Source: Candidatus Micrarchaeota archaeon (lineage in GTDB: Archaea > Micrarchaeota > Micrarchaeia > Micrarchaeales > Micrarchaeaceae). Taken from it: a DNA stretch of 55,297 nt. The position numbers and the translations under genes were made by a program. Below, piece by piece: positions 13,129 through 55,297 of this stretch. The notes under the pieces were generated by a model. That model was not told the DNA's origin, made no database searches, and saw only the letters and a program-made list of their open reading frames with translations. The stretch's first letter is position 1; each line of letters opens with the position of its first letter. The stretch covers positions 1 through 55,297 of the forward strand of contig DAHXLY010000032.1 in the NCBI GenBank assembly GCA_027365735.1. Reading direction: 5' to 3'.

Positions 13129-13236
13129 CTAGTGTAGCGGCAGAATCAGGCGTGGGGGCTCTTCTATCTCCTTGAGGACCCCCTTGCTGATCGTGTAGGG
13201 TTTTGGTGGTTTCAATTGGAATGTTACTGACGACAT
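13129..13236 (-). pseudogene. truncated member of the LKPPKPYTIS family (35 codons)
   Basis: Hand translation of the minus strand gives MSSVTFQLKPPKPYTISKGVLKEIEEPPRLILPLH*. It starts 5 nt after the stop of 13242..13811. Its head matches MASTTFQLKPPKPYTIS of 54590..55174. Confidence 0.6.
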
Positions 13237-13241
13237 GATTA

Positions 13242-13811
13242 TCACTGCGGTCTTTGTGCAACCGGCACCCCGACCACCACCGGAGCGGCAATCTGCGGCT
13301 CGTAGTCGGCATACAGGAAGAAACGCCAGCCAATGCCGGGAGCGACGTAGTCCGAATAGACGCCGAACGACAGCGGCCGGTTTCCCTTACAAACATTAAC
13401 CTTCCGCTCTGCCGAGAGCCTTTCCTCCCTTGCAATCTCTCTTAGCTCGCCTTTTTCGTTGATTGTGAATACTCCTTCCTTTTCTATACCCTGACCCGCG
13501 AGCCAGAAATGCTTTCCCTTCAGGGCGTTCTTGAGCTGTTCGTCCTCCATCAGGAGAAGAAGGAGTTCCTGGTATGTCATGGGCCTCAGCCCTGCCTCTG
13601 AAAGGAGTTTCATTGACTCAGGATGATTTGCCCTTTTTTCAAGGATGTGCAACGTCTTTCCGGTAGCGCCCATGACCTGCCTGAAGCCGTTTTTGTCGGC
13701 CTGCGGCGGTCTCCTCGGCTCGACTGGCAACGGTTCCGCGAGTGCCGCGTCCAAAGCCTCCTGGCTGATCGTATACGGCTTTGGTGGCTTCAGCTGCATC
13801 ATTCCCTGCAT
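13242..13811 (-). CDS. LKPPKPYTIS-family protein, copy A (189 aa), unknown function
   Basis: Colinear with 34893..35483, 43268..43858 and 54590..55174. Shared blocks are MQLKPPKPYTISQEALDA, GATGKTLHILEK, LLSEAGLRP.TYQE, LLMEDEQLKNALKGK.FW.AGQG, GVFTINEKGEL, GN.PLSF.VYSD and APVVVGVP. Differences between paralogs are in-frame, which supports coding. Confidence 0.85.
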   Translation of the reverse strand: MQGMMQLKPPKPYTISQEALDAALAEPLPVEPRRPPQADKNGFRQVMGATGKTLHILEKRANHPESMKLLSEAGLRPMTYQELLLLLMEDEQLKNALKGKHFWLAGQGIEKEGVFTINEKGELREIAREERLSAERKVNVCKGNRPLSFGVYSDYVAPGIGWRFFLYADYEPQIAAPVVVGVPVAQRPQ

Positions 13812-13892
13812 ATCTATCGCTAGGGCGTCGTTTTTTCTGATATTTAATGGCTACTATTTTGAACAAAAACAGCATAAGGTGTCGTTATTTTG
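13812..13892 (-). promoter_or_regulatory. conserved 5' module of the family (TATA box plus upstream block), copy A
   Basis: Minus-strand read: CAAAATAACG...GCTGTTTTTGTTC...AGCCATTAAATATCAGAAAAAACGACGCCCTAGCGATAGAT-ATG. TATA TTAAATAT is at 13840-13847. The module begins 5 nt after the stop of the upstream wHTH gene. Confidence 0.6.
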
Positions 13893-13896
13893 ACAT

Positions 13897-14241
13897 CTAC
13901 TTCTTCTCCTGCTTTTCTGGCTGTGGTGGCTGCGGCTTTGGCTCTTCCGACTGTTTTGGTTGCGGTGCGGACTGCTGCGGCAGCTGGCTGATTATCGTGT
14001 AAACTGTGCCGAGCGCATCAGCGAGCCTCATTCCCTTCTCGGTGAGCTTGATCTCCTTTATCTTTCCGTGCTTCTCGTTCGCGGTCAGGCCCATCTGCTC
14101 GCACTTCTTTATGAAGTTGCTCGTATGCACGTAGGTCGAGTCGCTCGCCTTGGCCAGGGTCGCAAGGTACCACGGCTGCTGGACGTTCTTCAACAGCAGG
14201 AATATACGAGCCTGCTTGTCCTTGAGAAGTATCACTCCCAT
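13897..14241 (-). CDS. winged-helix DNA-binding protein with Gln/Pro-rich tail
   Basis: 114 aa. ARIFLLLKNVQQPWYLATLAKASDSTYVHTSNFIKKCEQMGL...KEIKLTEKG reads as HTH plus wing, followed by the tail QQSAPQPKQSEEPKPQPPQPEKQEKK. Confidence 0.6.
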   Translation of the reverse strand: MGVILLKDKQARIFLLLKNVQQPWYLATLAKASDSTYVHTSNFIKKCEQMGLTANEKHGKIKEIKLTEKGMRLADALGTVYTIISQLPQQSAPQPKQSEEPKPQPPQPEKQEKK

Positions 14242-28629: not shown

Positions 28630-28754
28630 GCCAGGGTGGCAGAATCCGGTAATGCGCCGGTCTTGAATTTTCAAAATCTCAAGAGCTGATTTGTGATGCG
28701 AACAGGCCAACCGGTGCCCTTACGGGCTTTAGGGTTCAAATCCCTACCCTGGCG
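28630..28754 (+). tRNA. tRNA-Ser: tRNA-Ser (anticodon TGA) with a ~41-nt intron after position 37
   Basis: Acceptor GCCAGGG/CCCTGGC plus G73. The 5' half of the anticodon stem is CCGGT (28657-61), with loop CTTGAA and anticodon TGA at 28664-66. The 3' half ACCGG lies only at 28710-14, so 28668-28708 must be spliced out (junction +/- 1-2 nt). Long variable arm TGCCCTTACGGGCTT, T-arm TAGGG-TTCAAAT-CCCTA. Confidence 0.85.
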
Positions 28755-32669: not shown

Positions 32670-33815
32670 ATGCTTTTGCTTGAACTAACCGAAGGTAAGC
32701 GCGTCGCAGCCAGCGACCAGTCCACTAAGGACCTCCTCAAGAAAGGGCACTTTGGTGCAGTCGAGGGCGGGACTCTTTATCTTGAGCCTGAGGAGGCGCT
32801 GTATCTCGTCGACGTAAGGAACGCAAGGTGCACACAAAACAGAAGAGCCATAGGGTTCAACGAGCTCGCCGAGCGGGTCGGGGCAAGCATGGCGAAGTAC
32901 TTTACCTACAAGGACTGGAGGGAGAGAGGGCTGATAATAAAGAAAAGCACCAGTGTGAGGCCGTGGCAGGGAGGTAGGATTTCGACGGTGAAATACCCCG
33001 CATCGGAGCAAAAACTGAAGACCCGCAGCATCAGTGGGATGTTCTTTCCACGCGATCTTACGACGATAATCGATGACCAGAAGGTCGGGAAGGAAATCTA
33101 TGAGCAGAACTGGTTCGGGCAGTACGGCACATACAAGCTCGGTGACAGGGGTGCGCTAAACAAGCTCGATATATTCGAGACCGTGTTCCTGATCGACGCG
33201 GGAGTGTTAAAGACGAATCTCTCCAGGTCTGAAATCGTCGGTATCGCTGAAAAGAGGAGGGGTGACTTCCAGAAGCTCTACGACGTTTATGCTGATTGGA
33301 GGGGAAAAGGGTACGTGGTCAAGACCGGATTCAAGTTCGGTACCCACTTCAGGCTTTACTTCCCCGGCGCAAAGCCGAACAGCGCTGACGACAACTGGGT
33401 GCACTCTAAGCACGTGATACAGGTATTCCCGCGCGACGTCAAGCTGCTCACCTCCGAGTGGGCAAGGGCAATCCGCGTGGCGCACTCCGTAAGGAAGACG
33501 TTCATACTCGCCATACCGGGAAAGAGCAGGTCGAAGAGGATGGAGATCGACTTCCTGCTCTACCACAGAAAGCCGGGAGACATCGAGACCCCCGAAAAGG
33601 ATTCGCCAAAGTACGCTATGCTCTCCCTTGGCGAGGACGAGTACATTGGCGGCGCAGAGCTGTCGGCGGTGATAGCCGAGGCGAAATCCAAGAGGCTCGA
33701 GCTGGTCGTGGCGATAGCCGACCGCGAGACAGCCGTAACATTCTACAAGGTTAAAAAGGTCGAGCTTCCCAAGAGTGATTACGAGTATTACGAGATTGAC
33801 TGGATGCAGCCGTGA
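32670..33815 (+). CDS. endA: tRNA-splicing endonuclease, long multi-unit form
   Basis: A catalytic unit sits in the centre (WRGKGYVVKTGFKFGTHFRLYFPG...HSKHVIQV). It is flanked by an N-terminal unit of roughly 190-200 aa (LYLEPEEALYLVD) and a C-terminal unit of about 120 aa (...LELVVAIADRETAVTFYKV). 381 aa in total. Confidence 0.85.
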   Translation: MLLLELTEGKRVAASDQSTKDLLKKGHFGAVEGGTLYLEPEEALYLVDVRNARCTQNRRAIGFNELAERVGASMAKYFTYKDWRERGLIIKKSTSVRPWQGGRISTVKYPASEQKLKTRSISGMFFPRDLTTIIDDQKVGKEIYEQNWFGQYGTYKLGDRGALNKLDIFETVFLIDAGVLKTNLSRSEIVGIAEKRRGDFQKLYDVYADWRGKGYVVKTGFKFGTHFRLYFPGAKPNSADDNWVHSKHVIQVFPRDVKLLTSEWARAIRVAHSVRKTFILAIPGKSRSKRMEIDFLLYHRKPGDIETPEKDSPKYAMLSLGEDEYIGGAELSAVIAEAKSKRLELVVAIADRETAVTFYKVKKVELPKSDYEYYEIDWMQP

Positions 33816-34795: not shown

Positions 34796-34811
34796 CTGTA
34801 GGTATAATGCG

Positions 34812-34892
34812 CAAAATAACAATCTTCAGCACCGCTTTTGTTCTTTTCCACAGCCATTAAATATCAGAAAAAACGACCCCATAGCGATAGAC
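34812..34892 (+). promoter_or_regulatory. conserved 5' module of the family, copy B
   Basis: CAAAATAACAATCTTCAGCACCGCTTTTGTTCTTTTCCACAGCCATTAAATATCAGAAAAAACGACCCCATAGCGATAGAC-ATG, with TATA at 34857-34864. Confidence 0.6.
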
Positions 34893-35483
34893 ATGCAGGG
34901 AATGATGCAGCTGAAGCCCCCAAAACCCTACACGATCAGCCAGGCGGCTTTGGACGCGATACTCGCAGAACCATCGCCAATCGAGCCGAGGAGACCGCCG
35001 CAGCCGGAGCCGCAGGCGGTGCAGCAGGCTGACAAAAACGATTTCAGGCAGGTCAGGGGCGCTACTGGAAAGACGTTGCACATACTTGAAAAAAGGGCAA
35101 ATCATCCTGAGTCATTGAAACTCCTTTCAGAGGCAGGGCTGAGGCCTATGACGTACCAGGAAATCCTTCCTCTCCTGATGGAGGACGAACAGCTCAAGAA
35201 CGCCCTGAAGGAAAGGTGGTTCTGGATCGCGGGCCAGGGTATGAAAAAGGAAGGAGTGTTCACAATCAACGAAAAAGGCGAGCTAAGGGATATTACAAAG
35301 GAGGAAAACCCATCAGCAGAGCAGAATGTTCGTGTATGGTCCGGAAACCAGCCGCTGTCGTTCTTCGTCTATTCGGACTACTACGCCGCCTACGTTGGCA
35401 AGTGTTTCGACCTGGATGCCTCCCTCCGGCCGCAGTATGTTGCTCCAGTGGTTGTCGGGGTGCCTTCACTAGCGCGCGGTTAA
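34893..35483 (+). CDS. LKPPKPYTIS-family protein, copy B (196 aa), unknown function
   Basis: MQGMMQLKPPKPYTISQAALDAILAEPSPIEPRRPPQPEPQAVQQADKNDFRQVRGATGKTLHILEK..., colinear with copies A, C and E. Confidence 0.85.
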   Translation: MQGMMQLKPPKPYTISQAALDAILAEPSPIEPRRPPQPEPQAVQQADKNDFRQVRGATGKTLHILEKRANHPESLKLLSEAGLRPMTYQEILPLLMEDEQLKNALKERWFWIAGQGMKKEGVFTINEKGELRDITKEENPSAEQNVRVWSGNQPLSFFVYSDYYAAYVGKCFDLDASLRPQYVAPVVVGVPSLARG

Positions 35484-41808: not shown

Positions 41809-42546
41809 ATGAATTATTCATACGATCAAGACCGTGAAGGTGTGGTGTTCGCCAACATAAAGGACGTCAACGCCAGCTTCAAGGATCTCGGGGCGGTCTG
41901 CACCGCGATAAGGTACAAGACCGTGCCGGTGGCAGTTGCAACCCTGGAAGCGACGATAAACGAGGGCATGCCAATCCCGTACGTAAGGCACAACATAAAC
42001 ATGGGCGCGCGCCACGAGCTGGGAGGGAAGAAGGGAAGATATCCGATAAGGTGTGCGAAGATAGTCCAGAAGGTCCTGATCAACGCGATGGCGAATGCCA
42101 AGAACAAGGGGATGAACCCGGAGCACATGTATGTGATTCACGCTTCAGCAAACAAGACAATCATCGCAAGGAGGGGCCCGTCGGTTGGGCCGTCCTCGAT
42201 CACCGGAGGGCCGTCAGGTTACTCCGGAGGAAGGGCGATGGACCTCGAGTTCGCAAGGGTGGAACTGGGCCTTTCAGAAATGAACGAGAAGAAAATGAAG
42301 CACTCAATGGTGACCCACATCAAGTACACGATGTCAAAGGTCCCGAAGGTAATGGTTAGGAAGGCTCAGGCCGCATATGCACTCCCTAAGAAGGTCGAAA
42401 AGAAAAAGGAAAAGGGCAAGGACCATGACCACGACCACAAGGGAGAGAAGAAGCCGCTGATCGCGCTCGAAAAGAAGGAATCGCCGAAGGAGAAGTACGA
42501 AGATAAGAAAGGCGAACTGAAGACGGAGCAGAAGGTGCCGCAATGA
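41809..42546 (+). CDS. rpl22: ribosomal protein L22 (uL22) with ~88-aa C-terminal Lys/Glu/His-rich extension
   Basis: Core ...NASFKDLGAVCTAIRYKTV..A...L........PY.RHN...GRYP.RCAKIVQKVL.NA..NA. After about residue 157 comes the non-canonical tail ...KKVEKKKEKGKDHDHDHKGEKKP... Confidence 0.9.
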   Translation: MNYSYDQDREGVVFANIKDVNASFKDLGAVCTAIRYKTVPVAVATLEATINEGMPIPYVRHNINMGARHELGGKKGRYPIRCAKIVQKVLINAMANAKNKGMNPEHMYVIHASANKTIIARRGPSVGPSSITGGPSGYSGGRAMDLEFARVELGLSEMNEKKMKHSMVTHIKYTMSKVPKVMVRKAQAAYALPKKVEKKKEKGKDHDHDHKGEKKPLIALEKKESPKEKYEDKKGELKTEQKVPQ

Positions 42547-43166
42547 CGATAGAGAGAAAATTCATAGATAACGCTGTAATCAAGCTGAAGATATCGAGGT
42601 ATCTCGAGAAGGAACTCCAGAGAGCCGGATTCTCGAGGGTCGATATCCAGAAGACCCCCGTGCTCACAAGAATTGCGGTTCACGTCCTGAACCCGGGAAA
42701 GGTGATCGGCAGGGGCGGGTCGACGATCGACCGACTCACGGAAACGATCAGAACCAAGTTCAAGGTCGATAACCCGCAGATAAACGTCACGGAGGTCGAG
42801 AACAAGATGCTCGAGCCGATGCTGGTCGCGAGGGACCTTGCGGAAAGGCTGGAGCGAGGGTTGAACGCAAGGAAGATAATCCAGGGAGCCCTCAGGATCA
42901 TAATCGAAAACGGCGCGCTCGGCGCGGAGATAATAATTTCGGGCAAGCTCGCGGCGAAGGGCGCGAGGGCCAAGATGATCAAGAAGTCGGTCGGTTACAT
43001 CCCGAAGGCCGGAAACGTCATGGAGCTGGTGAGGGAGGCCGAGGCTGTAGCATACCCGAAGTACGGCGCAATCGGGGTGAAGGTCAGGATTGTGCCGCCA
43101 GGGACGGTCTTCCCGGACAGGGAGATAAGGAAGATCGAGGTTCCGAAGGCGATCCTGAACGCCTAA
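42543..43166 (+). CDS. rps3: ribosomal protein S3 (uS3)
   Basis: KH domain: KFIDNAVIKLKISRYLEKELQRAGFSRVDIQKTPVLTRIAVHVLNPGKVIGRGGSTI. ATGA overlap with the L22 stop. Confidence 0.92.
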   Translation: MTIERKFIDNAVIKLKISRYLEKELQRAGFSRVDIQKTPVLTRIAVHVLNPGKVIGRGGSTIDRLTETIRTKFKVDNPQINVTEVENKMLEPMLVARDLAERLERGLNARKIIQGALRIIIENGALGAEIIISGKLAAKGARAKMIKKSVGYIPKAGNVMELVREAEAVAYPKYGAIGVKVRIVPPGTVFPDREIRKIEVPKAILNA

Positions 43167-43186
43167 TCGCCGTCGGCAACCGGTAT

Positions 43187-43267
43187 CAAAATAACAACCC
43201 CCAGCCCTGCTTTTGTTCTTTTCCACAGCCATTAAATATCAGGAAAAACTACCCCCTACCGATAGAC
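43187..43267 (+). promoter_or_regulatory. conserved 5' module of the family, copy C
   Basis: CAAAATAACAACCCCCAGCCCTGCTTTTGTTCTTTTCCACAGCCATTAAATATCAGGAAAAACTACCCCCTACCGATAGAC-ATG, with TATA at 43232-43239. It begins 20 nt after the rps3 stop. Confidence 0.6.
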
Positions 43268-43858
43268 ATGCAGAGAAGTATGCAGCTGAAGCCACCAAAA
43301 CCATACACGATCAGCCAGGAGGCCCTGGACGCGATACTCGCAGAACCATCGCCAATCGAGCCGAGGAGACCGGAGCCGCAGGCGGCACAGCAGGCTGACA
43401 AAAACGATTTCAGGCAGGTCAGGGGCGCTACCGGGAAGATGTTGTACATCCTTGAAAAAGAGGCAAATCATCCAGATTCGATGAAACTCCTTTCAGAGGC
43501 CGGGCTGAGGCTGCTGTCATACCAGGAAATCTTTTCTCTCCTGATGGAGGACGAGCAGCTCAAGAACGCCCTGAAGGGAAAGTGGTTCTGGATTGCGGGA
43601 CAGGGCATGAACAAATATGGTATTTTTACAATTGATGAAAAGGGAGGGCTTGTTCCACTTCCACAAGGATTCTTCAAGAAGAAAACCTCAGTAGAACAGA
43701 AGGTTGGTGTTTCGCATGGAAACCAGCCGCTGTCGTTCTACGTCTATTCGGACTCCGGCGCCGCCCTCAATGGCAGGCGTTTCTACCTGTTTGCCGACGG
43801 CAAGCCGCGGGCTGTCGCTCCGGCGGTGGTCGGAGTGCCGGTCGCAAATAAAGTATAG
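43268..43858 (+). CDS. LKPPKPYTIS-family protein, copy C (196 aa), unknown function
   Basis: MQRSMQLKPPKPYTISQEALDAILAEPSPIEPRRPEPQAAQQADKNDFRQVRGATGKMLYILEK..., colinear with copies A, B and E. Confidence 0.85.
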   Translation: MQRSMQLKPPKPYTISQEALDAILAEPSPIEPRRPEPQAAQQADKNDFRQVRGATGKMLYILEKEANHPDSMKLLSEAGLRLLSYQEIFSLLMEDEQLKNALKGKWFWIAGQGMNKYGIFTIDEKGGLVPLPQGFFKKKTSVEQKVGVSHGNQPLSFYVYSDSGAALNGRRFYLFADGKPRAVAPAVVGVPVANKV

Positions 43859-43955
43859 CGTTCAGGCCAGGATTTACCTGTTTTTTCGGTCGACACCAAA
43901 CTTAATAAGGCTTGTCGTGCAATACAATACCTGGGGCGGCTTCTTTTGAAGTCAC

Positions 43956-46900
43956 ATGCGTGAGTTGATGCTTGCAGCTACCATTCTAGTCGCGATTATC
44001 GCATTTCTGACAATATTCGTTCCGGGAATGCTTCTAGCCCTCGCGCTATTGAGGAAGACGGAGCTGAACCTGTTCGAGATATCCGTAATAGGGTTCATAC
44101 TCGGGTTCATGGAGACCCCTACGGTCGTATGGTTGGAATCATACCTCATGAATACGTTGCATTTCTTCTCGTTTTCACTCGGGCTCTACCTGCTAAATGC
44201 CATAGCGCTTTCCATAATAGGATTTGCCCTCTGCGTATGGCAGGGGGTTTTCAAGGACTTCAAAAAACAGTATATAGCTGGGCATGACGGCAGCACCATA
44301 AGGAAGATGCCGCAGTGGGTCCTGGCTGTGCTGCTGTTCATCATGCTTCTCACGTTCATAACCAGGATACAGGGCATCGCGACCGCCCCTACATTCTTCG
44401 AATTTGACCCGTACTTCGACATGATCGATACGAACTACATCCTTACCTACGGCCAGCAGCTCCTGCTCGATCCGTCCGCCTGGCCTTCGGTGCCCGGCGG
44501 GACCAACCACAGGATAGAACCGCTTATACCATACACCGAGGCGTTTTGGTATTCGCTATCAAATTCACTCGGGTCAAACTACCAGCAGCTTAACACCACC
44601 CTCATGAGCCTAGTCGGGAGCGTTTATCCGCCGATCGTGGCTGTGCTGTTGGTGTTCGCGATATTCGTGCTGGTCTATCACGAGTACAACGAGCACATCG
44701 CTCTCATAGCCGCGGCTCTCACCGCAACCATGCCGGTCCTGCTCACTACATTCATAGCCGGAGAGCAGCTCGTCGAGCCGTGGGGCATATTCGCGATGTT
44801 CTTCTTCATAATGGCGTACATGCTTTGCGTCAGGAACCCGAAGAACACAAGGCTTGCGATACTCGCCGGGATTGCATACATAGCCAACTTCGTCGGGGCT
44901 CACTATTACACCGTTACTATGGGCGTTTTCGTCGCTTACATGCTCCTCCAGGGAACGGTGGACATCCTCCGCGGCACCACATCCAAGGACTTCTACAGGT
45001 CCAACGCGATAATAATACTGATGACAATCGTATTCCTCGCGGTCTACCTTCCGTACAGCTCAACCCTTCAGAATAGAATCCCGTCAGTGGGCGGGATTCC
45101 GCTGACGCTTGCGGGTCCGGTGCTTGCCCTTCTGGCGATTGCGGTGATAGACTACCTGCCAAGGGAGATGGTGAAGAGGAAGATACTCATCAGCCAGCTC
45201 GACTTCAATACAAGGCTTGCTTCATTCGTCGTCCTCGGCCTGCTCAGCCTCATACTGATCGCAGTAACCCCGCTCGGCAAGGCGGCATTAGGTTACATCA
45301 ACCTCAGCAGCAAGTTCACCACCCCCTCCAGCCCGCTCTTCATGACCGTTGAGGAGTACATCCCGACCGGCCTGACCTACAACTTCGGGGCGCAGGGGTT
45401 CGGGGTAATCGGCGCCAGCACATTTGGGTTGCCGCTAATAATATGGATTGTCTGCCTGCTCGCCCTCGCGCTCATCGCGATAAGCGTCTACTACAGGAAG
45501 AGCAGGACCGGCATACTCTACATGGCGATCGCCTTGCCGCTGATGTTCGCCGGGTTCTCAGAGGTGAAGTACCTCCCGCACTTCGGCGTGGCCTATATAA
45601 TCTTCATCGCGATAATCCTCGGAGAGCTCATCTACATGTCGGAACGAAAGTTCGCATTCAGGGAGTTCGCGAACAAGGAGGTTACCGACGAACAGTCGCA
45701 CGGCATCCTTTCACACACCAAATACACAACGTCCGCCACCTACGCGGTGCTCTTGGTAGGGTTGTTCTTTGTTTCATCCCTCGCTGCGTTGCTCTACGCC
45801 GCCTATCTTGCGCTCACCGCAAAGAAGGCGGGCGACGGGTCAACAACTTCAACAACTCCCGTGTTCAACTCCACGGCCGCCTGGCTGATGTTCGGCATAT
45901 TTGCGGTCATAATGCTGATAGGGTACCTCTCAAACCACACCATCATAGCCGGGGAGTCGGGAACTTTCTACGATGCGATAAACTCGGCTGTGGTCGTCTC
46001 CACGACCCCTCCGTCGCAGGTTTGCACGGCAATATCCAACAGGGGCCTCAGCATGGGGTATGCGATCTATTGCAACAGCATCCCGCAGTACTGGCTGAAC
46101 TCCATGGCGTGGATAAAACAAAACGTAGGTCCGAACGCCCCGCGTGTGCTGGCGTGGTGGGACTACGGCGACTGGATCAACTGGTTCGGAAACAGCAACG
46201 CCTTCCTTAGGGGCGATAACGCCAATGCGATTGAGGACTACGCCACCGCCGCCCACTATGTCCTGGGCGACAAGTACAACCCGCAAAGCCTCGCCAACTT
46301 CATGAACACCAACCAGTCAAAGTACGTTCTGTTCGACCAGGACCTGATATCCAAGTGGGGAGCGCTTGATTTCTTAGGATGCGTTTATGCGAACGAAACA
46401 TCCCAGGCATTCGCCGTAGCACAGGGCCAGGCGTCGTCAAACCCGCAGCCCTACCTCCTCGGAACATCCTCATGCGAACAGGCCCACGACCCGCAGTTCG
46501 CCCTCATACCGCTTGCTGCGTTGGTCCCGTCAAACCAGTCGCAGAGCATAAACTTCTACTGCTCGATATCGACCAATTCCACTCCATACGTCCAGGCCCC
46601 GCTCATAATCGGGCAGAACTACTCCAACCAGTCGGTGTGCGTCGACATCAACCCGAACAAGAATGGGGTGCTTAGCCTCTACAATTCGACCGGGAAGAAG
46701 CTCAATGCGGTGATACAGTCCAGCTTCTACCTGGGTGTGGTGAACGTCGGCGGGACTCCATACGTGGAGTACATGATGATATACCTGCCCGGCGCCAACG
46801 GCACCGTGGTCAATCCGCCGTCGCAGTTCTACACCTCGAACTACTACAGGGGCTTCATACTAGGCAAGCTGCCCGGATTCACGCAGGTCTACCCGCAGAA

Positions 46901-47030
46901 CGCGACCGGCATAAACTTCGTGAACGGCACCTATGCGGTAAGGATATACGCGCTCAACAACTTCACCGGCCAATTGCCGCCGGTACCGGTGAAGCCGTCG
47001 TGGATACACAACAACTACTCGATGCCATAA
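43956..47030 (+). CDS. aglB: oligosaccharyltransferase AglB (STT3 family)
   Basis: 1024 aa with a multi-TM N-terminal half, then the WWDYG motif (PRVLAWWDYGDWINWFG) and a large soluble C-terminal domain rich in N-x-S/T sequons. Confidence 0.9.
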   Translation: MRELMLAATILVAIIAFLTIFVPGMLLALALLRKTELNLFEISVIGFILGFMETPTVVWLESYLMNTLHFFSFSLGLYLLNAIALSIIGFALCVWQGVFKDFKKQYIAGHDGSTIRKMPQWVLAVLLFIMLLTFITRIQGIATAPTFFEFDPYFDMIDTNYILTYGQQLLLDPSAWPSVPGGTNHRIEPLIPYTEAFWYSLSNSLGSNYQQLNTTLMSLVGSVYPPIVAVLLVFAIFVLVYHEYNEHIALIAAALTATMPVLLTTFIAGEQLVEPWGIFAMFFFIMAYMLCVRNPKNTRLAILAGIAYIANFVGAHYYTVTMGVFVAYMLLQGTVDILRGTTSKDFYRSNAIIILMTIVFLAVYLPYSSTLQNRIPSVGGIPLTLAGPVLALLAIAVIDYLPREMVKRKILISQLDFNTRLASFVVLGLLSLILIAVTPLGKAALGYINLSSKFTTPSSPLFMTVEEYIPTGLTYNFGAQGFGVIGASTFGLPLIIWIVCLLALALIAISVYYRKSRTGILYMAIALPLMFAGFSEVKYLPHFGVAYIIFIAIILGELIYMSERKFAFREFANKEVTDEQSHGILSHTKYTTSATYAVLLVGLFFVSSLAALLYAAYLALTAKKAGDGSTTSTTPVFNSTAAWLMFGIFAVIMLIGYLSNHTIIAGESGTFYDAINSAVVVSTTPPSQVCTAISNRGLSMGYAIYCNSIPQYWLNSMAWIKQNVGPNAPRVLAWWDYGDWINWFGNSNAFLRGDNANAIEDYATAAHYVLGDKYNPQSLANFMNTNQSKYVLFDQDLISKWGALDFLGCVYANETSQAFAVAQGQASSNPQPYLLGTSSCEQAHDPQFALIPLAALVPSNQSQSINFYCSISTNSTPYVQAPLIIGQNYSNQSVCVDINPNKNGVLSLYNSTGKKLNAVIQSSFYLGVVNVGGTPYVEYMMIYLPGANGTVVNPPSQFYTSNYYRGFILGKLPGFTQVYPQNATGINFVNGTYAVRIYALNNFTGQLPPVPVKPSWIHNNYSMP

Positions 47031-53687: not shown

Positions 53688-53723
53688 TGCAATCAACGGC
53701 CCCAGCAGTGCAGAACTAAGGTG

Positions 53724-53804
53724 CAAAATAACAACCTCCAGCACCGCTTTTGCTCTTTTCCACAGCCATTAAATATCAGAAAAAACCACACCCTGGCGAT
53801 AGAT
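53724..53804 (+). promoter_or_regulatory. conserved 5' module of the family, copy D
   Basis: CAAAATAACAACCTCCAGCACCGCTTTTGCTCTTTTCCACAGCCATTAAATATCAGAAAAAACCACACCCTGGCGATAGAT-ATG, with TATA at 53769-53776. Confidence 0.6.
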
Positions 53805-54587
53805 ATGCAGGGAATGATGCAGCTGAAGCCACCAAAGCCGTATACGGTCAGCCCGGAGGCCCTCAAGGCGATAGAGGATCTTCCTCCCTTAAGGACAACT
53901 TCCACAGATGGAATGCGCGCCAAACCGCAAAATATGCAATCGGCGATAGTCCCGACTGGAAGGAACCAGTCATGGCTGGATGCAAGATTGGCATTGGACA
54001 GGGAGGGAAAGAGGATGCCTACGAATGTGGATTACGATAAAGTATTAGTCGGGTCGGAAAAGTGGAGGGAAATAAGGAATGTTTTCCCCGCATGGACCGA
54101 CAGCGTATTGGTCTATCCTGCAAAGAACGGAGAGTTCAATGCGGGAAGGGATGTTGTAGACGCTTTTAAGGACGGTGCGGGAAACGAATGGGTATTCTCC
54201 GCCGCTTCAATTCCAAAAGAGGCGATAGGGAGGAAGGGAGTGGGGATACACATAGACCATCCAGCAATAGAGGTGCGCGGAAAGACCGTAATACTGTCCG
54301 CAGGACCGGAAAGCACAGTAACAGTACTTGAAAATTTCATTCAGGAAAGCGGAAAGACGGGAAAGGTCGACGAAAAGACAAGAGTGCCTCTGGCGGTTTC
54401 GAATGTCAATAATCTTCCTGCAGAACAGATGAGACGGCTCTGGAGAATTGATGGAGCAGGAGTAAGGCCTCTGGTCCGCGACCTCTACGGCTACGGCAAC
54501 AGGGACAGGCGGCTCGTCGGCGCGAACGGCAGGCAGGACATCCGTTTCGGGGTGGCGCTGGTCGAAACAGAAAATCCAAAGGTGTAA
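53805..54587 (+). CDS. LKPPKPYT(V)S-headed protein with a divergent 240-aa body (copy D)
   Basis: MQGMMQLKPPKPYTVSPEALKAIEDLPP..., after which it cannot be aligned by eye with the 190-aa type. The start at 53805 was chosen by homology of head and promoter; the listed 53721 start reads through the TATA box. Confidence 0.8.
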   Translation: MQGMMQLKPPKPYTVSPEALKAIEDLPPLRTTSTDGMRAKPQNMQSAIVPTGRNQSWLDARLALDREGKRMPTNVDYDKVLVGSEKWREIRNVFPAWTDSVLVYPAKNGEFNAGRDVVDAFKDGAGNEWVFSAASIPKEAIGRKGVGIHIDHPAIEVRGKTVILSAGPESTVTVLENFIQESGKTGKVDEKTRVPLAVSNVNNLPAEQMRRLWRIDGAGVRPLVRDLYGYGNRDRRLVGANGRQDIRFGVALVETENPKV

Positions 54588-54589
54588 TC

Positions 54590-55174
54590 ATGGCATCAAC
54601 AACATTCCAATTGAAACCACCAAAGCCATACACGATCAGCCAGGAGGCCCTGGACGCGATACTCGCGGAACCATCGCCAATCGAGCCGAGGAGACCGCCG
54701 CAGCCGGAGCCGCAGGCGGCGCAGCAGGCTGACAAAAACGGCTTCAAGCAGGTAAAGGGCGCTACCGGAAAGACGTTGCACATCCTTGAAAAATGGGCAG
54801 ATTATTCGGATTCGATGGAACTTCTCTCGGAGGCGGGACTGAAGCCGCCGTCATACCAGGAAATCCTTTCTCTTCTAATGGAGGACGAACAGCTCAGGAA
54901 CGCCCTGCAAGAAAAGTGGTTCTGGCTTGCAGGAGAGGGTATGAAAAAGAACGGAATATTCACAATCAGTGAGAAGGGGGAAATCAGGAAAATTAGGTGG
55001 AGAGAAAAACTCTCGTTAGAGCGGAAGGTTCATGTTTATAAGGGAAATCAGCCGCTGTCGTTCCGTGTCTATTCAGACGCCCCTGCCGCCGACCATGGCT
55101 GGCGTTTCGCCCTGGATGCCTACGCCGTGCCTCATAATGTCGCTCCGGTGGTGGTCGGGGTGCCAAAAACTTAG
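54590..55174 (+). CDS. LKPPKPYTIS-family protein, copy E (194 aa), unknown function
   Basis: MASTTFQLKPPKPYTISQEALDAILAEPSPIEPRRPPQPEPQAAQQADKNGFKQVKGATGKTLHILEK... The start is 2 nt after the copy D stop, and it has no promoter module of its own. Confidence 0.85.
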   Translation: MASTTFQLKPPKPYTISQEALDAILAEPSPIEPRRPPQPEPQAAQQADKNGFKQVKGATGKTLHILEKWADYSDSMELLSEAGLKPPSYQEILSLLMEDEQLRNALQEKWFWLAGEGMKKNGIFTISEKGEIRKIRWREKLSLERKVHVYKGNQPLSFRVYSDAPAADHGWRFALDAYAVPHNVAPVVVGVPKT

Positions 55175-55186
55175 ATGCTCTCAGCG

Positions 55187-55297
55187 CCTGCCCCTGCAGT
55201 CCGCCGGCACTATGCTCGGCCTCCCGGTCTGGGACTGGAGGAATCCGGATAACTGCTCTCGCGGCGAGGTGTATCCCTGCCTGAGAAGATGTTCGGG
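55187..55297 (-). CDS. possible C-terminal fragment of a gene extending beyond the window
   Basis: The minus strand is open from the window edge to TGA at 55187-55189 (...LRQGYTSPREQLSGFLQSQTGRPSIVPADCRGRR*). Too short to classify. Confidence 0.2.

Follow-up and report, generated by a model that had tools for sequence, protein, structure and literature searches.

Within a 55,297-nt stretch of the chromosome of a Candidatus Micrarchaeota (DPANN) archaeon, referred to here as the window, several small genes carry nearly the same nucleotides at their 5' ends, diverge further downstream and resemble each other again in a second short island near the 3' end. The question raised by this gene family is which process keeps the two ends alike. 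A preliminary description of the locus had proposed recurrent gene conversion seeded at the shared 5' module, or selection acting on the nucleic acid itself. The reading preferred here, to which a probability of roughly 80 % is assigned, is that the genes are targets of a diversity-generating retroelement (DGR), by which their 3' ends are overwritten, and that the 5' module is shuffled by ordinary recombination.

The gene content of the window is archaeal and includes the genes for ribosomal proteins L3, L4, L2, L22, S3, L15e, S9, L13, and S2, for RadA, PolB, RNR, PCNA, and a tRNA splicing endonuclease, and tRNA genes. Scattered among these are five intact putative DGR targets, namely four paralogues of about 190 amino acids (copies A, B, C, and E, of the A-type) and gene D. 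The features, with their variable regions (VRs), are as follows:

13129..13236, minus strand: A2, the 35 codons left of a truncated D-type gene, 5 nt downstream of copy A, with a start of the "internal" type (MSSVTFQLKPPKPYTISKG...)
13242..13811, minus strand: copy A, predicted A-type target with a middle cassette of class 1 and a short linker; VR 13287-13376, IMH-like element 13264-13286, both on the minus strand
13812-13899, minus strand: block upstream of copy A, counterpart of the block upstream of copy C
34805-34892: block upstream of copy B, counterpart of the same block
34893..35483, plus strand: copy B, predicted A-type target with a middle cassette of class 1; VR 35352-35441, IMH-like element 35442-35464, both on the plus strand
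43180..43267, plus strand: promoter-like block upstream of copy C (repeat family D2, 85-86 % identity), with the TATA-like CCATTAAATATC at 43229-43240
43268..43858, plus strand: copy C (from ORF and paralogy), predicted A-type target of 196 aa, directly after the gene for ribosomal protein S3; it encloses the stretch 43301-43372 singled out in the preliminary description
43571..43714, plus strand: middle cassette of copy C, class 2 (alignment codons ~106-153), deeply divergent
43727..43816, plus strand: VR of copy C
43817..43839, plus strand: IMH-like GC-rich element closing the VR of copy C (GCTCCGGCGGTGGTCGGAGTGCC)
53717-53804: block upstream of gene D, counterpart of the block upstream of copy C
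53805..54587, plus strand: gene D, predicted target of 260 aa from a different family; VR ~54466-54549, followed by the IMH-like GGGGTGGCG
54590..55174, plus strand: copy E, predicted A-type target with a middle cassette of class 3 and an "internal" start, 2 nt after gene D; it encloses 54626-54697, with its VR at 55052-55141 and an IMH-like element at 55142-55164

Copies A, B, and C and gene D all begin with the promoter-like block and MQGMMQLKPPKPYT; judged from its sequence, the block probably acts as a promoter. Copy E and A2 are the second genes of pairs and start with M(A/S)S(T/V)TFQLKPPKPYT. The common ground of gene D with A, B, and C is limited to the upstream block of about 90 nt and about 20 N-terminal codons. 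None of the target families matched an entry of Pfam or NCBIfam, and only 20 members of the A-type family were found among 5.8 billion proteins searched. A pattern scan of reference genomes located the family in MAGs of Candidatus Micrarchaeota and Micrarchaeaceae.

Copy C breaks a ribosomal operon straight after the gene for S3 (window positions 42543-47030) and is followed by the gene for a 1024-aa protein with weak similarity to the STT3/AglB oligosaccharyltransferase (TIGR04154, 61 bits, below the cut-off). A 125-nt Rfam tRNA match at 28630-28754 (plus strand), absent from the ARAGORN list, is probably an intron-containing tRNA; the tRNA splicing endonuclease gene lies at 32670-33815. The idea that the copies are parts of integrated elements at tRNA genes, suggested by repeat D5, was rejected: D5 consists of similarity between tRNA 3' ends only, and the ORFs after the tRNAs encode ribosomal protein S2 and other housekeeping functions. 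Inspection of the unit flanks by eye revealed neither target-site duplications nor terminal inverted repeats.

The mismatch counts that had drawn attention to the 5' module were reproduced. Between positions 43301-43372 of copy C and 54626-54697 of copy E there is a single difference in 72 nt; relative to C, 34926-34997 of copy B has 4 differences and the corresponding segment of copy A (13707-13778, minus strand) has 10, again over 72 nt. Along their full length, copies C and E have 77.4 % identity; in 5000 codon shuffles, a 24-codon window with at most one mismatch never arose, so that the clustering of their mismatches goes beyond chance. The 5' island would be a module specific to the lineage, made up of a promoter, a leader, and about 45 N-terminal codons; it is common to both target families, and its protein part is predicted to be disordered. 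In an AF2 model of copy C, residues 1-45 are of low confidence, which is consistent with disorder. The module (QLKPPKPYTISQEAL...) is confined to this lineage. Remoter A-type and D-type relatives have other N-termini and share instead a C-terminal tail located after the VR (E = 2e-14 for P0018 versus P0025), which is absent from the window copies. The N-terminal module may serve as a functional handle. Used alone as a protein query, the 49-aa module returned one fragment, and a scan of JGI metagenomes with it gave 0 matches.

Synonymous divergence (pS, Nei-Gojobori), computed in windows and segments, is indeed nonuniform along the genes, although its profile is piecewise instead of the steady fall in identity toward the 3' end that had been described. 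Nucleotide identity is high over codons 1-105, drops to 61-71 % between classes over codons ~106-153, and recovers in the last 45 codons. The pS values amount to 0.15-0.30 in codons 9-45, 0.13-0.38 in codons 46-105, and, in codons ~106-153, 0.55-0.76 between the three cassette classes and 0.05-0.22 within a class. In the last 45 codons pS is 0.08-0.29 and pN 0.21-0.28, nonsynonymous change being equal to or above synonymous change. For the pair C-E, pS is 0.16, 0.31, and 0.76 over the three segments that precede the VR. The value for codons 9-45, taken over the tabulated pairs, is like the same-class values in other segments (0.05-0.25), and the synonymous sites of the module can therefore not be called frozen. 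Against a background pS of about 0.2, it is the middle cassette that stands out by its deep divergence. The cassette of copy C has 63-69 % nucleotide identity to those of A, B, and E and 94-95 % to those of L002b and L017f, with a pS of 0.63-0.76 between classes versus 0.05-0.15 inside the class. The comparison contigs used here and below (L001, L002, L017, and L026-L028) are metagenome assemblies that are not assignable to single genomes.

Recombination explains this mosaic. A PHI test of 11 genes over codons 1-153 gave P < 0.0005, and a Sawyer-type test detected three tracts, with global P values of 0.002 (C-L017f), 0.006, and 0.014 (B-C, codons 22-58); the tract shared by C and E was significant pairwise only (P 0.001-0.03), not globally. 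L017f combines a strongly diverged 5' half (64-72 % identity to C; pS 0.65-0.69) with a class-2 cassette sharing 95 % identity with that of C (pS 0.06). The length of the linker assorts freely with the class of the middle cassette. Both start types are found on both gene families, which places the module at exchange junctions, and tandem arrays with a conserved stop-start junction occur in L001, L002, and L026-L028. Of the gene conversion seeded at the 5' module that had been proposed, recombination between the copies and the position of the module at the junctions are thus borne out, while a specific seeding at the 5' end is not, the outlier being the middle cassette. The latter would consist of three old classes between two conserved flanks, reassorted by recombination, with the flanks probably serving as homology arms for cassette exchange. 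The similarity at the 5' end would stem from recent shared ancestry and homologous exchange (unequal crossing-over, gene conversion) within a family that forms tandem arrays as well as dispersed copies.

Not all of the 5' data call for exchange. The copies might simply be recent duplicates (pS about 0.2), in which only the middle cassette is odd because it evolved very fast or was imported. This would agree with a 5' pS that is not below the background, with the uniform divergence between A and B, a pair without any 5' bias, and with a PHI test that is not significant for the four window genes alone. It is nevertheless considered improbable: in codons 9-105, 66 % of the informative site pairs are incompatible, PHI on the 5' half alone gave P = 0.045 and 0.025, and the combination of start types with both gene families, the free assortment of the linker, and the composite structure of L017f would all have to be explained without exchange. 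Even less probability is given to conservation of the module as a functional nucleic acid (mRNA structure, antisense target, regulatory or recombination site), in spite of the single C-E mismatch, the common upstream block, and the place of the module at exchange junctions. RNA folding of the 5' segment was no better than that of shuffled sequences (z of +0.19 for 156 nt and +0.44 for 91 nt), none of 16 predicted pairs showed compensatory change, there is no conserved antisense ORF, the Rfam scan returned tRNAs only and no family over the module, and the pS of the module equals same-class values elsewhere. Constraint on the RNA or DNA itself, one of the two causes put forward in the preliminary description, hence finds no support at the 5' end. 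Assembly collapse, also mentioned there, or chimeric contigs can practically be dismissed as the origin of the near-identical stretches. Many related contigs are short (1-1.4 kb), and repeats fragment such assemblies, but the copies differ at many positions and sit in distinct housekeeping contexts, and the D-E junction and copy E are reproduced exactly in L018, an independent assembly from another sample that is 100 % identical to window positions 54347-55297.

The second short island (CCGCTGTCGTTC..GTCTATTCGGAC) is present in all four copies, and for this island a cause at the level of the nucleic acid is favored, albeit one that the preliminary description had not considered: templated replacement by a DGR. 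In four loci from Micrarchaeota MAGs (L004, L005, L008, and L009), a gene of the family is followed by a template repeat (TR) and then by a reverse transcriptase (RT). The noncoding repeat after the family gene in L009 opens with CCGCTGTCGTTC AAC GTC AAT TCG GAC AAC AAC GCC GCC, goes on with AAC TAT GGC AGG CGT TTC AAC CTG AAT GCC AAC AAC, and closes with GAG CCT CAT AAT GTC GCT CC, after which an RT with YVDD follows. Comparison of the TRs with their cognate VRs gave the following mismatches:

L009: 15 of 25 adenines, 0 of 71 other sites
L008: 13 of 25 adenines, 1 of 71 other sites
L004, two VRs: 40 of 52 adenines, 2 of 140 other sites
L005, VRs on another contig of the same MAG: 28 of 52 adenines, 2 of 140 other sites

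Overall, the mismatches in cognate pairs affect 52-77 % of the TR adenines and 0-2 of 71-140 sites with another base. As noncognate TRs have 8-20 non-A mismatches, the VRs of each genome track their own TR. IGxxxSQ is a motif of DGR RTs; the RT in these loci matches RVT_1, contains IGNLTSQ, and lies next to the TR in L004, L005, L008, L009, L022, and L023. An Avd-like gene was sought among the RT neighbors in L022 and L023, which gave no Pfam match, although small helical proteins may escape such detection. The RT positions are as follows:

L009: 4096-5230
L008: 5148-4041, minus strand
L004: 5931-4833, minus strand
L022: 7069-8177
L023: 9202-10311

The same kind of site pattern is seen in the window. 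Against the TR of L009, which is the nearest TR and heterologous to the window VRs, with 4-7 non-A mismatches each, the VR of copy C is mismatched at 17 of 25 adenines and 4 of 71 other bases; the corresponding figures are 15 of 25 and 7 of 71 for B, 16 of 25 and 6 of 71 for A, and 16 of 25 and 4 of 71 for E. Among the four window VRs, 22 of the 25 columns that hold a TR adenine are variable, versus 13 of the 71 others (P = 7e-10), and the variable codons read NNC, NNT, or NNG, the third base being fixed and the first two free. Between copy C and the near-identical allele L026b there are 3 differences in the 156 positions just upstream of the VR and 19 in the 90 positions inside it, all 19 at the first two bases of variable codons. 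This concentration of differences in the VR indicates that diversification is recent. Bacterial matches to the VR-skeleton pattern (L006, L010-L012, and L014-L016) proved to be chance matches in unrelated genes.

A Pfam search of about 60 ORFs and searches for a TR revealed neither an RT nor a TR in the window, which would therefore contain remote targets and not a DGR cassette; we infer that A, B, C, and E are acted upon in trans. An RT encoded elsewhere would copy the TR RNA into cDNA and misread adenines only, so that the TR codons AAC, AAT, and AAG would become NNC, NNT, and NNG. The mutated cDNA would then replace the VR, and at every nonadenine position, synonymous sites included, all copies would revert to the TR sequence. 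Such resetting combined with adenine misreading would yield a low dS with dN equal to or above dS. TR-templated, adenine-specific rewriting, evident in the cognate pairs of the relatives, would in this way also account for the 3' island of the window copies, to which it is extended on the basis of the site pattern and of a matching (D-type) TR in the same sample as L018. A 3' island formed without a retroelement, by purifying selection on a structural scaffold interleaved with diversifying contact residues, is very improbable. Conserved amino acids do alternate with hypervariable ones in the 20 homologues, yet selection on the protein cannot fix third codon positions or the synonymous sites of the scaffold. 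Moreover, the variable bases match the adenines of a noncoding TR that adjoins an RT in the relatives, and the VRs of each genome carry silent variants specific to their own TR.

About three non-A mismatches per copy in A, B, and E are left unaccounted for by the inferred TR variant; they reflect either infrequent re-templating or the use of more than one TR. The VR of copy E reads CCT CAT, as do the L009 TR and L017f, the VRs of A and B read CCG CAG, and that of C reads CCG CGG. In the tandem pairs of L001 and L002, the first gene is of the CCT type and the second of the CCG type. The split suggests two TR versions serving different copies, or infrequent homing. No A-type TR was recovered for this genome: L022 and L023 carry a D-type TR only, the contig of P0015 stops right after the gene, and a scan of JGI metagenomes with the predicted TR core gave 0 matches.

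Gene D and its counterpart in L017 are about 90 % identical save for a C-terminal stretch of codons of the NNC type. A close relative of gene D, P0025, adjoins a TR and an RT on both L022 and L023. With the TR of L022 and L023, the VR of gene D agrees in all but 1 of the 56 nonadenine sites; its mismatches with the L023 TR affect 13 of the 27 adenines. L022 comes from ERZ27237460, the sample that also yielded L018, which is identical to the end of the window. On these sequence comparisons, gene D is most probably a second DGR target, with its TR and RT on a contig from that sample.

All VRs end in a conserved GC-rich GCTCCGGTGGTGGTCGGGGTGCC-like element, 10-35 nt before the stop codon, where the TRs carry GCTCCAATGGTTCTC... 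instead; the former is regarded as IMH-like and the latter as IMH*-like. In L003, L009, and L019-L023, a hairpin with a GC stem of 6-7 bp and a GAA loop is located 26-27 nt after the IMH start, in both target families, and its stems covary (GGCCGC/GCGGCC, CGACCGC/GCGGTCG, and GGCAGC/GCTGCC). A GC hairpin with a GAA loop was found after the VR neither in the window copies nor in L001, L002, and L017. The hairpin is encoded inside the C-terminal tail, which has been lost from the window copies.

At one conserved position, the RT contains a homopolymeric tract of G residues, a feature of which a literature search gave no report. L022 and L023 are 99.96 % identical over 8.2 kb apart from this tract, which is G13 with an intact RT in L023 and G12 with a frameshifted RT in L022. 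The RT is also frameshifted in L009 and L004 (G11) and in L008 (G9); L005 has an interrupted tract and an in-frame RT. Either slipped-strand switching of the DGR between on and off or an assembly error in the homopolymer could account for these differences.

The AF2 model of copy C has a pLDDT of 79, and its six best fold matches in the PDB are all C-type lectin-like domains, albeit weak ones (E 0.03-1, TM 0.35-0.48); a PDB sequence search with the family profile returned noise only. The DGRs that target Mtd of Bordetella phage BPP-1 and TvpA of Treponema share with the present system a TR/VR pair with adenine-specific mismatches, a VR that occupies the 3' end of its target ORF and closes with a GC-rich IMH-like element for which the TR has a diverged equivalent, variable codons derived from AAC and AAT, and IGxxxSQ in the RT (here that of the relatives). 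The targets described here differ from them in being very small (189-260 aa), in the absence of a recognized Avd-like gene, in the occurrence of five targets in the window with no nearby RT or TR and no post-VR hairpin, and in the weakness of the match to the C-type lectin fold, which the Mtd and TvpA targets have. Borrelia vls and Neisseria pilS are mosaic multigene families in which variable cassettes between conserved flanks undergo homologous exchange. The genes in the window resemble these in their flanked, divergent, and reassorted cassettes and in the nonuniform divergence along the gene. In contrast to vls and pilS, all copies are full-length genes that, from their sequence, appear to be expressed, the arrangement of one expression site and silent donors is absent, and one of the flanks would be kept uniform by retro-homing and not by conversion alone.

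DGRs have been described in DPANN archaea, namely in Nanoarchaeota, Pacearchaeota, and Woesearchaeota, with AvpA among their targets, and remote and modular targets are known as well, according to the passages on DGRs in these papers (PMC6349945, PMC5006420, PMC8144416). Remote targets are noted there to be missed by cassette-based DGR surveys, and intragenic recombination is considered as a means of building chimeric targets (PMC8144416). The hosts in those passages are likewise DPANN archaea with small genomes, and the targets are presumed to act in attachment; the passages do not mention Micrarchaeota. What is unusual in the present family is the very small size, the multiple copies, and the dispersal of the targets, which occur in tandem arrays and scattered among housekeeping genes, together with a common terminal module that is swapped between two target families (N-terminal in this lineage, C-terminal in the relatives).

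A wider reading, offered tentatively and considered rather doubtful as a whole, is that diversification in these Micrarchaeota proceeds at two levels, with DGR mutagenesis complemented by flank-driven shuffling of cassettes and promoters, by the handle, and by the poly-G switch of the RT. Adenine mutagenesis would randomize the ligand-binding tip of many small lectin-like proteins. The VR scaffold and the portable terminal handle would form near-identical homology arms, by which old middle cassettes are shuffled and promoters swapped between copies and target families. The handle, being common to both families, would tag DGR-diversified proteins for one partner or location, and the poly-G tract of the RT may turn the whole system on or off. 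In the preferred reading of DGR targeting and ordinary recombination, the seemingly frozen nucleotide pattern is translated into a concrete mechanism, a trans-acting DGR by which, in 55 kb of chromosome that otherwise carries housekeeping genes, at least five genes would have their 3' ends reset. The family would then be a compact case in which retro-homing and ordinary recombination together shape the surface or binding proteins of a host-dependent archaeon. Testable predictions that follow concern the sequence of the missing TR, read polymorphism limited to adenine sites, and the partner of the terminal module.

The D-type cassettes (L022 126-8177 and L023 178-10311) lie amid genes for an integrase, AbiEii, and a ParE-like toxin, with an N6/N4 methyltransferase gene and MJECL32/33-like genes as further neighbors. 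In view of this setting, the D-type RT and TR may ride on an integrated mobile element.
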